A DNA stretch of 64,000 nt from a virus: IMG/VR virus record IMGVR_UViG_3300009509_000015, positions 1 through 64,000 of that record. One strand, given 5' to 3'. This document shows positions 7,823-14,107 of this stretch, in pieces; position 1 is the stretch's first letter; each line of letters begins with the position of its first letter. The notes under the pieces were generated by a model, which was not told the origin of the DNA, made no database searches, and saw only the letters and a program-made list of their open reading frames with translations. Position numbers and translations under genes: made by a program.

Positions 7823-8494
7823 ATGGGTGTACTGATATATCAAATGGGAAGAGTAGGATCAGTAGCAATAAACAGGGCACTAAAAAACGTAGGAGTTGAT
7901 ACACTACATGCGCACTACCTAGCTAATGGAGGAGAGCACTATAAAAGACTTCTTGCTGGTGACGATTTAATAAAAGCTGCAACGTATGACATAGTTACTC
8001 TTGTTCGTGATCCCATAGCACGTAATCTATCCGAGTATTTTAGGCGCATGAGTCCTAAAGTTGAGTATGATTACCAGTGGTTATACAAAAAGTTCATGAA
8101 AGACTTTAACCACATATGGCCTTTAGTATGGTTTGACCTAGAGTTTCTACCATTTACTGGTTTAGACCTGCTATACTGGGGCTTTCCTATAGAGCATACA
8201 GATACATTTCAAACAGCAATAGGACGTAACGTACTTGTGCTTCGCACAGATAAGCTAAACCAAAAATCAACCAGTGAAGCACTGTCAGAGTTTACTGGAA
8301 AAGAAATAGCAGAAATTCCAGTGGCTAATAATATATCAGAGAGACCTGGGCTTGATGTAATATACGATGCGTTCCTTTCTCAAGTGTGCTTTCCTGAACC
8401 TTTTGTAGAGTTCTTTTATAATAGTGCATACAGCATAGTATTTTTTACTGCAAAAGAACGAGAGCGCTTTATGAAGAGGTGGACATGCCAATAG
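7823..8494 (+). CDS. NKWYS-family (capsular polysaccharide synthesis) sulfotransferase-fold protein
   Basis: YQMGRVGS and TLVRDPIARNLS motifs; YNSAYSIVFFT...RW. Confidence 0.75.
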   Translation: MGVLIYQMGRVGSVAINRALKNVGVDTLHAHYLANGGEHYKRLLAGDDLIKAATYDIVTLVRDPIARNLSEYFRRMSPKVEYDYQWLYKKFMKDFNHIWPLVWFDLEFLPFTGLDLLYWGFPIEHTDTFQTAIGRNVLVLRTDKLNQKSTSEALSEFTGKEIAEIPVANNISERPGLDVIYDAFLSQVCFPEPFVEFFYNSAYSIVFFTAKERERFMKRWTCQ

Positions 8495-9168
8495 TGGTAT
8501 ACCAACCAGGGAAAGTAGGATCACAGGCAATAGCAAAAACACTAAATGATATGGGCAAAAAAGTATACCATGCCCACTATATTTATAACATAGCAGGTGA
8601 GTACTCCTCTGCTGCAAACTATAAACTAAAGAAAACATTATCAGAACTTAATCAACCATTACAAATTGTTACACCTATACGTGAGCCAATAGCAAGGAAC
8701 TTATCTGCGTACTTCTGGTCATTACCAAAGGATGCAAAGTATACGCCAGATATATACAAGCACCAGTTTATTAATAACTACCAACATGAATGGTTACTTA
8801 ACTGGTTTGACCACGAGTTTAATAATCTGTTTGAGATGGATATTTATGAACTAGCGTTCAACCAGCACAGGGGGTACTCAATCTATGAAGGCATGTGGAA
8901 TAAACAACCCCTCAGTATCTTGATCGTGCAGCAAGAAAAGCTTATGTTTAACTTCAAGGAAATACTGGTAAGGTTCTTTCACACTGATGCCTATCCAGTA
9001 GTACCTAGAGTTAATGAAACTAAGCAGTGGTTTTATAAAGATTTTAAATGCTGGTTGAAGTTACCTGAAGATTTCCTAGAGAAAATATATACATCTAAAT
9101 ATGCCAGACATTTTTATGGTGAGCATGATATAACTCACTTCAAAAATAAATGGCGTGAGCTAGCGTGA
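8485..9168 (+). CDS. NKWYS-family sulfotransferase-fold protein
   Basis: YQPGKVGS, TPIREPIARNLS, YTSKYARHFY...KNKW. Confidence 0.8.
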   Translation: MPIVVYQPGKVGSQAIAKTLNDMGKKVYHAHYIYNIAGEYSSAANYKLKKTLSELNQPLQIVTPIREPIARNLSAYFWSLPKDAKYTPDIYKHQFINNYQHEWLLNWFDHEFNNLFEMDIYELAFNQHRGYSIYEGMWNKQPLSILIVQQEKLMFNFKEILVRFFHTDAYPVVPRVNETKQWFYKDFKCWLKLPEDFLEKIYTSKYARHFYGEHDITHFKNKWRELA

Positions 9169-9233: not shown

Positions 9234-9337
9234 TAGGGGCAAATTCCCCAAACGTAAATAGGGAACTACTCATATTGACAATTAGCCGATAGTATGTCAT
9301 AATAAATTTATATATTGACATAGGAGGCAATTATCAA

Positions 9338-9439: not shown

Positions 9440-9482
9440 GGCTGCGGTCAACCGCATGGGGGTTCAAATCCCTCCCCTTCCG
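9398..9482 (+). tRNA. tRNA-Ser(AGA)
   Basis: GGAAGGG/CCCTTCC-G; long V-arm; loop CTAGAAA. Confidence 0.8.
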
Positions 9483-9486
9483 CAGA

Positions 9487-9571
9487 GGAAAGTTGGCAGA
9501 GAGGCAATGCGTCGGCTTGCTAAGCCGTAGCCATCCGTAAGGATGCAAAGGTTCGATCCCTTTACTTTCCG
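9487..9571 (+). tRNA. tRNA-Ser(GCT)
   Basis: Type II; loop TTGCTAA. Confidence 0.9.
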
Positions 9572-9575
9572 CTAA

Positions 9576-9917
9576 GTCAAGATGGGTGGCTCTACGCTGG
9601 TCTAAATTTAGACTGGAGGAAGCTCAGGACTACACTGCTTAAGGTAGGAGGATATATGACTCAAGTTACATTAGTTAGCTCAGAAGAACCTGATCCAAAT
9701 TGTAAGCACAAAAGACAAACAACATTTACTTATAGACAAGGCAGAATAAAAGAAGTAGAAACGTATTGCCTCGACTGTTCGAGAACTTTATCCGTTAGCA
9801 CTACCGAGGTAGCAAGTGCAAGCAGCCTAGCGGGTGAGCAGCGCAACGATGGCGGGTAGCACGCATAGATAGATGTAGGGCTTAAATGACAGAATCCTGG
9901 CTATAGCCCATCTTGAC
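9576..9917 (+). ncRNA. rnpB: minimal RNase P RNA (catalytic domain) containing an ORF
   Basis: P1 GTCAAGATGGGT/GCCCATCTTGAC; CR-I GAGGAAGCTCAGGAC; CR-IV AGATAGATG; CR-V ACAGAATCCTGGCTATA; P2, P4, P5, P6 and P7 pairings present. Confidence 0.88.
9656..9859 (+). CDS. 67-aa putative Zn-binding protein inside the RNase P RNA
   Basis: AGGAGG RBS 5 nt before ATG; CKH...CLDC. Confidence 0.65.
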   Translation: MTQVTLVSSEEPDPNCKHKRQTTFTYRQGRIKEVETYCLDCSRTLSVSTTEVASASSLAGEQRNDGG

Positions 9918-9941
9918 AAACTACTTTAATTATGGTATAAT
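9913..9941 (+). promoter_or_regulatory. sigma70 promoter overlapping the RNase P 3' strand
   Basis: TTGACA-17-TATAAT with TG extension. Confidence 0.85.
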
Positions 9942-9948
9942 TAATAGT

Positions 9949-10098
9949 ATGTTAGCAGACAAATTATTACACCAGTTCTTTATGTGGATGGCAAGCATTA
10001 CAGGTATGACTAATCAAGAAGTGGCAACATGGACACTCCTTGGTATACTAGCGCTATTCATATTTATAGGAGTGGTTAGAAAAGCAGATATTTATTAA
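9949..10098 (+). CDS. small membrane protein (probably leaderless)
   Basis: ATG about 7 nt after the -10; one TM segment. Confidence 0.55.
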   Translation: MLADKLLHQFFMWMASITGMTNQEVATWTLLGILALFIFIGVVRKADIY

Positions 10099-10170
10099 GG
10101 CTCAGTAGCCAAGATGGTAAGGCGGGTGGCTGCAACCCACTGATCGCTGGTTCAAGTCCAGCCTGGGCCT
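10099..10170 (+). tRNA. tRNA-Cys(GCA)
   Basis: GGTGG-CTGCAAC-CCACT; U73. Confidence 0.92.
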
Positions 10171-12621: not shown

Positions 12622-13104
12622 ATGTCAACACGAAAGCTAACAACGTGGGAGATGGCAGAGTTTTACCCGATCTTTGGTAGTAATATAAAGTTTGGTGATA
12701 TAGTAGTACACGAAAGCAGCCCAATACCTAACCTAATTGACAGGATCGGTAGCTTTTTTACAGGAAAAGAACCCTATGCTAACAACGCAATTACTATAGG
12801 GAATAATGTTATGTTCCCAATGCCTATAGGCACAGACAAGGTATACTGGTTAATACATGAGGTAACACACGCTTGGCAGTATCAGCACATAGGGTGGAAG
12901 TACCTGTGGGATGCTGTCGTTGCACAATTTAGGGGCAAACCTTACGATTACGGTGGGGAAGATGGCTTGAATAGCCATACTAGTATATACGAATTTAATC
13001 CAGAACAGCAAGCGCAGATCGTACAAGACTATTATATACGAGTAGAGAACGGTGTGAACGCTGATGCCTGGAAACCATACATTGAGGAGATAAAAAATGG
13101 GTAG
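12622..13104 (+). CDS. DUF4157-like zincin
   Basis: AITIGNNVMF...LIHEVTHAWQY...NPEQQA. Confidence 0.75.
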   Translation: MSTRKLTTWEMAEFYPIFGSNIKFGDIVVHESSPIPNLIDRIGSFFTGKEPYANNAITIGNNVMFPMPIGTDKVYWLIHEVTHAWQYQHIGWKYLWDAVVAQFRGKPYDYGGEDGLNSHTSIYEFNPEQQAQIVQDYYIRVENGVNADAWKPYIEEIKNG

Positions 13105-14107
13105 TAGCTTAGTAGATGAGGGATCAGTTATTAGAAAGTTTAAATACTTTCTTGTTGTTGAAGCACCTAATGAGCTTGACGAACATGGAAACCCTAGGAA
13201 AACATGGCAAGTAGTAAGCACTACTAGGGCAATAGTATCTGGAGAAAATGTAACACAAATTCTTAACGACTTTTGTATACGTTATGAGATTACCCCTCCT
13301 ATTTTACCATTAAGCTTAACGTTTATTGGAGAAGAGCTTATAGACTTATCTGAAAAGCAAACTCTCCTGCTTTATCAAATGGGTAAAGTAGGTAGTGTAT
13401 CAATAAGATCGGCTCTTGAAAAGCTGGAATGGTTAGAAACAAGGCATATGCACTACCTAGTTAACGAGGGAGAGTACGGTACACGCTACGATCCTGTATG
13501 GTTACGTAGATTGGAGACAGAAGATACTATATGGAAAGTAATCACGTTGGTTAGAAACCCAATAGATCGCTGCGTATCTGGTTTCTTCTGGAGTATGATA
13601 GGAAAAGAAGAACCATTCCATGAGGGTATGTTGGACATGTTTGTGAATGAGTATAATCACAACTGGACTGTAGACTGGATGGAGAATGAGCTTAATAAAG
13701 CACTCAACACTAACATTTATAATTATCCGTTTAATAAAAATCGTGGCTACTCCCTATACCATAGGACTGCTGACAATGTAAGACCATACTTTCATTTGCT
13801 AGTTATCAGAACAGAGGATATGAGTCAAGTAGCTAGAACTGCTATAGCAGAACTACTACCAGAAGCTGATGTTGGAAATATTAACACGCTAAACTCCTCT
13901 ATAAAAAGAAAGCCGATAGCAAATGCGTACAGCCAATTCAAAGCTCAGGCAGTATTACCAGATGACTATGTTGACTGGATACTTAACACAAGATATGCCA
14001 AGCATTTTTATTCTGATGAGGAGCTTGCGGTTTCTAGGGCTATGTGGACACTACCAGCAGAAGAAAGGCTATCTTTCTTAAAGGATATGATAGAAAAAAA
14101 TAAATAA
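13097..14107 (+). CDS. NKWYS-family sulfotransferase-fold protein with N-terminal extension
   Basis: YQMGKVGSVSI, ITLVRNPIDRCVS, TRYAKHFYS. Confidence 0.78.
   Translation: MGSSLVDEGSVIRKFKYFLVVEAPNELDEHGNPRKTWQVVSTTRAIVSGENVTQILNDFCIRYEITPPILPLSLTFIGEELIDLSEKQTLLLYQMGKVGSVSIRSALEKLEWLETRHMHYLVNEGEYGTRYDPVWLRRLETEDTIWKVITLVRNPIDRCVSGFFWSMIGKEEPFHEGMLDMFVNEYNHNWTVDWMENELNKALNTNIYNYPFNKNRGYSLYHRTADNVRPYFHLLVIRTEDMSQVARTAIAELLPEADVGNINTLNSSIKRKPIANAYSQFKAQAVLPDDYVDWILNTRYAKHFYSDEELAVSRAMWTLPAEERLSFLKDMIEKNK

Follow-up and report, generated by a model that had tools for sequence, protein, structure and literature searches.

Can the catalytic RNA of a phage also be the messenger of a protein that is encoded partly by its own catalytic core? 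This question is raised by an RNase P-like RNA at positions 9576–9917 (plus strand) of the DNA analyzed here (the window), which comprises the first 64 kb of the 75,360-bp IMG/VR virus record IMGVR_UViG_3300009509_000015, with an estimated completeness of 85%. An open reading frame (ORF) of 67 amino acids begins in a loop of this RNA and runs on through conserved helices (9656–9859, plus strand). Judging from its sequence, the element is a phage RNase P-type RNA without helices P8–P14, and we consider the ORF to be real on the strength of its relatives. The locus is probably one gene with two products, a ribozyme and an mRNA; homology, a covarying structure and conservation of the ORF with in-frame indels were seen, whereas catalysis, translation and their separation in time are inferred.

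With permissive filters, the model of bacterial RNase P class A (RF00010) matched positions 9578–9919 over its full length (model positions 1–367) with 66.2 bits, below the gathering score of 100, and an E value of 5e-20 (1.8e-21 when evaluated over the whole record). At default thresholds, Rfam reported nothing at 9576–9917. Among the models of the RNase P clan, RF00010 was the best for the window; one overlapping lower-scoring match, unnamed in the output, was suppressed. Folding of the whole RNA by minimum free energy was uninformative (z = −0.88). The boundaries of the RNA, from the 5′ to the 3′ base of P1, are supported by the RF00010 match and by covariation in the family described below, and the two together uphold the identification as phage RNase P RNA that an earlier, sequence-only reading of the locus had proposed.

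P1 (9576–9587/9906–9917, 12 bp), P2 (9589–9595/9875–9881), P3 (9597–9604/9609–9616) and P5 (9630–9633/9809–9812) were read from the sequence, as were three conserved regions (CR): CR-I at 9616–9630 (GAGGAAGCTCAGGAC, equal to GAGGAAGCUCAGGAC), including the 5′ strand of P4; CR-IV at 9867–9875 (AGATAGATG, equal to AGAUAGAUG); and CR-V at 9889–9904 (ACAGAAUCCUGGCUAU), including the 3′ strand of P4. In P4, positions 9621–9623 and 9625–9629 pair with 9895–9902, leaving U9624 bulged. P7 (GGUAG/CUACC, 9643–9647/9801–9805) was read likewise and is supported by covariation, and P15 (9816–9819/9859–9862) and P16 (9825–9827/9851–9853) were identified by sequence and family alignment. P17 (9830–9832/9842–9844) closes a nine-base loop, L17, which holds the 3′ strand of the P6 pseudoknot: CUGCU in J5/7 (9635–9639) pairs with AGCAG (9837–9841), as covariation indicates. 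The sequence-only reading had located P1, P2, CR-I, P4, P5, P7, CR-IV and CR-V correctly, as sequence reading and covariation confirm, but it had wrongly chosen AAGCAG at 9820–9825 as the 3′ partner of P6. That segment is J15/16 (consensus CAAACAG), and its complementarity to J5/7 is limited to the window and is not seen across relatives. GGU at 9855–9857, before the 3′ strand of P15, is presumably the counterpart of G292–U294 of Escherichia coli, i.e., the CCA-binding loop. The specificity domain (S-domain; P8–P14 with CR-II and CR-III) was absent, and so was the P18 hairpin: just four nucleotides (9863–9866) lie between the 3′ strand of P15 and CR-IV, while the relative L102 has a hairpin CCC-GCAA-GGG at this position.

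About 35 distinct relatives turned up on phage contigs in motif scans. IMG/VR, searched with CR-I, a P17 motif and CR-V, yielded 33 of them, a scan of JGI metagenomes added two, and a scan with the P7′ pattern GCACTACNGAGGNAGCRA added one, the ORF-less L256. The distance between CR-I and CR-V ranges from 89 to 767 nucleotides (nt) across the family, and the window carries the exact family motifs (CR-I GAGGAAGYUCAGGA at 9616–9629 and CR-V ACAGAAUCCUGGCUAU at 9889–9904). The CR-V motif gave 120 matches in 185,579 prokaryote genomes, only one of which had a CR-I partner; the family is therefore essentially viral. This single match, L325 (CR-I and CR-V 245 nt apart), lies on a 20.7-kb contig of a metagenome-assembled genome (JALOAT010000060.1) and is probably a phage contig binned with that gammaproteobacterial genome, or a prophage. 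We found no description of phage RNase P RNAs in the literature covered, which excluded subscription journals, nor was the family found in Rfam 15.

RF00010 scores within the family were 170.3 bits in L104 (3063–3440 of a 265-kb contig), 100 bits in L115 (3970–4308 of a 119-kb contig; S-domain motifs are retained in both L104 and L115) and 69.6 bits in L252, with no match in L007 and L102; the best model for L253 was RNaseP_arch (42.4 bits, well under the gathering score of that model). Since L104 and L115 reach the RF00010 gathering score and share the P4 variant of the family, the phage family spans complete to miniature forms.

All pair counts were taken from MAFFT alignments, the one used for the covariation test being unguided. 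Among 14 ORF-less relatives, the 11-helix structure with both pseudoknots was 87.3% paired, versus 66.3% for shuffled sequences (none of 500 reached the observed value) and 32–41% when the partners were slid; compensatory changes were found at 40 of the 55 pairs. In a 20-sequence alignment that included the window, all eight pairs of P4 formed in every sequence, with compensatory changes in L252, L253, L079 and L256. The P4 variants were GC[U]CAGG/CCUGGC, GG[U].../...GCC (L252), AC[U].../...GGUU (L253), AAG[U] (L256) and CGGGA/UCCCG (L079). Every P5 pair likewise formed in all 20 sequences, and in P7 four of the five pairs formed in 19–20 sequences. P15–P17 and P6 of the window were misaligned in this alignment (A3) and were read by hand against another one (A4). 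The two strands of P6 changed together to CCGCU/AGCGG (L007, L080, L102), UCGCU/AGCGA (L252), CUUCU/AGAAG (L256) and GCCGA/UCGGC (L135), with GGAAC/GUUCC, GACAC/GUGUC and others among further relatives.

Some members of the family have additional RNA elements at or near the RNase P-like RNA. In L145, a GOLLD RNA that exceeds its gathering score with 172 bits is found a few hundred bases away (3479–3941, minus strand), and a YrlA-like match (44.6 bits, under its threshold) is located near the RNA in L104 (3857–3968, minus strand). L135 (minus strand, 4877) and L143 (plus strand, 12539) contain a second CR-I-like motif, GAGGAAGTTCGGGT, 247 nt upstream of CR-I, which may be a second or broken copy.

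The family layout P7–GA–stub hairpin–GUNNNNA–P7′ was found in the window as GGUAG-GA-GGAU...AUCC-GUUAGCA-CUACC, with a stub loop of 136 nt versus 4–30 nt in the family. The 5′ side of this layout (9643–9653), supported by covariation of P7 and the stub, consists of the P7 strand, the GA junction and GGAU (9650–9653), and contains AGGAGG (9646–9651). The 3′ side (9790–9812), supported by sequence and alignment, consists of AUCC (9790–9793), the junction GUUAGCA, the P7 strand CUACC, GAG and the P5 strand GUAG. The weakly structured, coding insert (9654–9789), absent from L252, L253, L256 and L007, is the loop of the GGAU/AUCC stem. The closest relatives keep GGUAG-GA-GG... and ...GCA-CUACC around the stub; in L252, L253 and L256, which have no S-domain, the stub is 3 bp long and ends in a GAAA or AAAA loop, and AGGAGG is a structural motif, found as the same AAGGTAGGAGG in the ORF-less L252 and L253. 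Because the ORF-less closest relatives show both states, the S-domain was gone and AGGAGG was present before the insert, which is an expanded tetraloop. The insert does not surpass shuffled sequence in folding (z = +0.73), the insert of L102 folds differently, and the insert-less L252 outscores the window on RF00010 (69.6 versus 66.2 bits); it is therefore not a degenerate S-domain.

Two proposals of the sequence-only reading are thereby retained in part. It had P7 enclosing AT-rich coding-like sequence; the insert is indeed coding-like, but P7 encloses the GA junction, the GGAU/AUCC stem and GUUAGCA, the insert being the loop of that stem. It had also described the S-domain as replaced by a gene; P8–P14 are missing, but the ORF is not their replacement, since L252, L253 and L256 already lack the domain.

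RNA-library contigs from three studies match parts of 9449–9992 at 99–100% identity. This is weak evidence, as DNA carry-over is possible; the depth is 2–3, positions 9599–9637 are uncovered, and ends, strand and level are not given by these contigs. One of them spans 9638–9816 with both insert junctions unbroken, and joints that skip the insert were not seen among them.

Insertions of other kinds occur in this RNA in other phages. L110 (6370–6780 of a 482-kb phage contig) has an insert of about 400 nt at the same stub position, without a related C-x-H...C-x-x-C ORF or an Rfam match. L095 (2094–2729; same sequence in L079 and L096) carries a 211-amino-acid homing endonuclease gene with GIY-YIG and NUMOD3 inside the P16–P17 region, the stop of which is the TGA of the GGUGAGC loop motif. 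Group I intron models did not match the inserts of L095 and L110.

The ORF starts at AUG 9656, three nucleotides past the 5′ strand of the stub stem, and passes through P7′, P5′, P15–P17 and the 3′ strand of P6 to a UAG stop (9857–9859) in the GGUAG of the CCA-binding loop, the last base of which is also the first base of the 3′ strand of P15. About 23 codons (70 nt) thus lie on the core, over conserved helices. AGGAGG spans P7 (A9646, G9647), the GA junction and the stub stem (G9650, G9651). The only DNA relative with the ORF was L102, a 101.7-kb phage contig with terminal repeats, which encodes 65 amino acids and keeps an identical 17-mer, GTAGGAGGATATATGAC (also given as AGGAGGATATATG). Searches of 5.8e9 clustered proteins and 1.84e9 cluster representatives gave nine related proteins of 58–71 amino acids in six clusters, originating from JGI, ENA and Logan assemblies. 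All nine share the motif M-x(1-14)-C-x-H...F-x-Y...C-x-x-C, and C16, H18, F24, Y26, C38 and C41 were invariant in the seven aligned sequences. The tail (S/R)TT(E/Q)(V/A)A, encoded by the junction, P7′, GAG and P5′, is present in all nine, and none terminates before the core-encoded (S/R)TT(E/Q). All indels are of whole codons: 19–21 residues separate CxH from CxxC and 5–14 residues separate CxxC from TTE. The close variants P0006, P0008 and P0009 differ by a one-codon indel in the N-terminal linker before the first Cys and are identical in the core. The frame running through P7′ and P5′ to 9859 in the sequence-only reading is thus a conserved one.

In the window, the other five frames contain 2–6 stops (2–7 when taken together with L102), and the probability of the open frame in shuffled sequences was 0.014 for the window and 0.046 for L102. 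The core frame that yields the ORF tail is also open in the ORF-less L252 (1038–1157) and L253 (minus strand), which have neither the insert nor a start codon; this points to gene birth in place by loop expansion, and the already open core frame may be the reason why such an expansion could create a gene. Scans with an ORF protein pattern found L102 alone in viral contigs and nothing in metagenome and genome contigs; the pattern TAGGAGGATATATGAC gave about 100 chance matches. Six-frame remnants of the ORF were sought in all other family loci, including L110, and paralogues of its protein were sought elsewhere in the phage; none was found. A free-standing homologue was not found among the 1.84e9 cluster representatives, the sensitivity being limited for a 36-residue core. 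In the literature covered, again outside subscription journals, we found no report of an ORF inside an RNase P RNA.

The AlphaFold2 model, built from seven sequences, has a three-stranded sheet over residues 21–51 with disordered ends (predicted local distance difference test 72–85 over residues 11–50). Its third strand, (L)SVSTTEV, is encoded by the conserved ribozyme sequence 9790–9812. The invariant C16 (9701–9703), H18 (9707–9709), C38 (9767–9769) and C41 (9776–9778) form a putative zinc-binding site. No family could be assigned by Pfam (none at cut-off), PHROGs or a PDB sequence search, and no reverse transcriptase, maturase or LAGLIDADG domain was found in the protein with these resources. 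Structural matches were weak (Foldseek E values of at least 0.2; VIA-align Z of 3.0 to the NrdR zinc ribbon). The likenesses to Rpp21 (Foldseek E 0.67–0.98) and NrdR were within noise and were not used as support. ESM Atlas returned unnamed clusters only and put zinc-ribbon families at 0.85, to be taken as a lead and not as an assignment.

We propose that the RNA is an S-domain-less phage ribozyme that keeps P1–P7, P15–P17, the P4 and P6 pseudoknots, the bulged U and the GGU loop and that, most likely with RnpA of the host, would cut the 5′ leaders off the pre-tRNAs of the phage. In this lineage, the tetraloop of the vestigial stub would have grown into an unstructured loop of 100–136 nt and fused in frame to the already open downstream core, giving a protein of 58–71 amino acids. 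The folded ribozyme would hide the ribosome-binding site, and a translating ribosome would have to melt most of the catalytic domain. With the Shine–Dalgarno (SD) sequence in P7, the GA junction and the stub, and with the ORF crossing core helices, folding and translation should be mutually exclusive on one molecule; the competition suggested by the sequence-only reading is supported by the structure in this way. Translation would most likely take place on the nascent transcript, since about 150 nt more must be transcribed after the SD and AUG until their pairing partner appears; the RNA would then fold into a stable, translationally silent ribozyme.

As to the function of the protein, it possibly acts on the phage RNase P particle or the tRNA pathway, although we hold this with reservation; because it is acidic, protein contact, e.g., with the very basic RnpA of the host, is favored over generic RNA binding. 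A bolder and rather unlikely reading is that the ribozyme encodes its own partner or regulator in cis, in the manner of introns that encode maturases. Synthesized while the RNA is still being transcribed, the protein would attach to the RNase P particle of the phage, either to the RNA or to the basic RnpA of the host, and take over part of the job of the lost S-domain or retarget the enzyme to phage pre-tRNAs; with the SD buried in P7 and the stub, its synthesis would be self-limiting. A cofactor replacing the S-domain is possible, an idea weakened by the isoelectric points of the proteins (4.5–6.7).

Several observations weigh against a gene with two products, and they feed the alternatives. 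The acidic to neutral proteins are atypical for RNA-binding cofactors and have no RNA-binding signature, and their third strand and tail come from the junction, P7′, P5′ and beyond, in a frame already open in L252 and L253. Co-location therefore requires no functional link, and it is a serious contender that the protein is real and unrelated to RNase P: it would have originated in situ, for another phage purpose, where a stable and highly transcribed RNA gene has a loop that tolerates change, and the ORF would stay in place only because its last β-strand is encoded by the ribozyme core. The lack of a free-standing homologue in the searches above, within their limited sensitivity, gives no hint of such another role. 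Translation itself may be questioned as well. Codon-level tests had two DNA copies to draw on, those of the window and L102. Between them, the ratio of nonsynonymous to synonymous substitution rates is about 0.93 and the differences are spread as 17/14/16 over the codon positions, without a third-position excess; as the pair is saturated, it gives no codon-level support. Seven of the nine proteins are known solely as predicted proteins, and protein searches find intact frames only, which biases the argument from in-frame indels. AGGAGG, which the sequence-only reading took for an SD lying partly in P7, does span P7, the GA junction and the stub stem, but it is older than the insert and present in ORF-less relatives, and therefore is no evidence of a ribosome site by itself; its spacer to the AUG is just 4 nt, not the 5 nt given by that reading. 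To these may be added that UUUACUU might pair with AAGUAGA in the window and, to some extent, in L102, and that the insert of about 400 nt in L110 has no homologous ORF. We nevertheless give little credence to an untranslated frame, with a neutral insert or an expansion at the RNA level and with the open frame and Cys/His pattern as by-products of RNA constraint and search bias. Six clusters keep the frame, the start and the four metal-ligand residues through many whole-codon indels, P0006, P0008 and P0009 vary by one codon in the linker with an identical core, the insert has neither a stable nor a shared fold, and the shuffling probabilities are low (0.014 and 0.046).

The RNA side is open to doubt of a different kind: the score of 66.2 bits is under the Rfam threshold, the S-domain and P18 are missing, and no RnpA gene was found in the 85%-complete record, so that activity would depend on the host protein. 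All this would suit a decoy or sponge for host RnpA or pre-tRNA, or a relic, with the ORF as the sole present function. Such a loss of RNase P activity seems unlikely to us, as P4 with its bulged U, the P6 pseudoknot, CR-I, CR-IV, CR-V and GGU are kept under compensatory change in about 35 phage lineages, which fits a selected catalytic core. Bacterial catalytic-domain constructs, moreover, cleave pre-tRNA when the protein subunit is present. It is hardly credible that a selfish mobile element, or an intron that is removed from the RNA, makes up the insert. The GIY-YIG/NUMOD3 gene in the P16–P17 region of L079, L095 and L096 does show that the RNase P RNA gene is a landing site for mobile ORFs. 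The insert, however, has no nuclease or intron signature, and a group I or group II intron would need more than its 136 nt; the C-terminus of the ORF is core sequence and thus not movable as a unit; no copy was found elsewhere in the phage or in the searched databases; and the RNA-library contig is unbroken across both junctions, with no joints seen. A dual ribozyme and messenger remains our preferred reading of the locus.

The window encodes a gpA-type large terminase, a portal, an SU10-like major capsid protein and a family A DNA polymerase, together with an array of 31 tRNA genes and a transfer-messenger RNA (tmRNA). DNA identical to the window was present in metagenome runs from six studies (labelled marine sediment, sediment, soil or metagenome), and no resembling phage was found in the GenBank collection. 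The gene of tRNA-Ser(GCU) (9487–9572, plus strand) ends three nucleotides before P1. A sigma-70-like promoter (TTGACA-17-CATAAT, 11/12; 9275–9303, plus strand), identified by consensus match alone, is likely the start of a unit with a small ORF, two tRNA-Ser genes and the RNase P-like RNA. A perfect promoter of this type (TTGACA-17-TATAAT, 12/12, with a TG extension; 9913–9941, plus strand, consensus match) overlaps the last bases of the P1 3′ strand with its −35 hexamer and faces the next small ORF and tRNA-Cys. This hydrophobic ORF of 49 amino acids has an in-frame ATG at 9949, 7 nt past the −10 hexamer, and may be leaderless; its stop is flush with tRNA-Cys at 10099, so that promoter and ORF together take up 9913–10098. 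No terminator-like site was seen on the plus strand 3′ of the RNase P-like RNA. Elsewhere in the window, ARAGORN identified a tRNA with a four-base anticodon (tctg; 5576–5650), amino acid unassigned, with an Rfam tRNA score of 58.8 bits, and the tRNA genes are interspersed with three paralogues (7823–8494, 8479–9168 and 13097–14107) that have the NKWYS domain of putative capsular polysaccharide synthesis proteins (PF10364).

RNase P RNA is a textbook trans-acting ribozyme. With its bacterial type A (RF00010; M1 RNA encoded by rnpB of E. coli, Thermotoga maritima), the RNA of the window shares P1–P5, P15–P17, the bulged U of P4, the P6 pseudoknot between J5/7 and L17, CR-I, CR-IV and CR-V, GGU before the 3′ strand of P15 and a full-length model match. 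It differs in the absence of P8–P14 with CR-II and CR-III and of P18, in scoring 66 bits where the gathering score is 100, in three to four P4 pairs exchanged relative to the bacterial consensus, in being encoded by a phage and in its protein-coding insert. CR-I, CR-V (ACAGAAUCCUGGCUAU), the P7–GA–stub–GUNNNNA–P7′ layout and phage tRNA arrays are common to it and the other phage miniature RNase P RNAs, whereas the stub loop of 136 nt, which with 70 nt of core makes up a conserved ORF, is shared by L102 alone among the DNA copies compared. The locus is a further indication that phages rich in tRNA genes come with a tRNA-processing ribozyme of their own. Archaeal type T (RF02357; Pyrobaculum and relatives) and engineered catalytic-domain "mini" RNAs likewise have almost no specificity domain; type T, however, is archaeal, has archaeal protein partners and lost the domain independently, and none of these RNAs carries an ORF. 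In archaea and eukaryotes, proteins are thought to have moved into the space of lost RNase P RNA. If translation and catalysis were both confirmed, the phage RNA would allow a test of whether proteins fill the space left by lost RNase P RNA domains; if the protein also proved to be a partner of its ribozyme, this would be the first RNase P RNA encoding a subunit of its own holoenzyme, a live takeover of RNA by protein inside a ribozyme gene.

An ORF in a peripheral loop of a ribozyme is also found in introns (LtrA in domain IV of group II introns; maturases and homing endonucleases of group I introns). In Ll.LtrB, the SD and the start codon lie in a structure bound by the protein, which results in autoregulation and serves as the model for a cis-encoded partner here. 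Those introns are self-splicing and mobile and encode large reverse transcriptases, maturases or nucleases, whereas the window has a trans-acting ribozyme and a protein of about 60 residues without a known domain, the ORF of which extends into the catalytic core. A zinc ribbon would have two metal-binding knuckles (four Cys/His) on β-hairpins; the protein of the window has the invariant C-x-H and C-x-x-C and a predicted three-stranded sheet, its structural matches are weak, and no Pfam cut-off was reached. Dual-function RNAs (tmRNA, SgrS/SgrT, RNAIII/δ-haemolysin, SR1/SR1P) combine a structured RNA and a messenger in one transcript as well; none of them is a ribozyme, and their coding and functional parts are mostly separate, in contrast to the 23 codons on conserved helices here. 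What is new in the present locus is a conserved ORF in an RNase P-like RNA, with about 23 codons over catalytic-domain helices and a candidate ribosome-binding site that is a structural element of the ribozyme. With both activities confirmed, it would offer a compact natural system for an RNA shared between the ribosome and a ribozyme fold, and an apparent case of gene birth in which a ribozyme loop expanded into a frame that was open beforehand.

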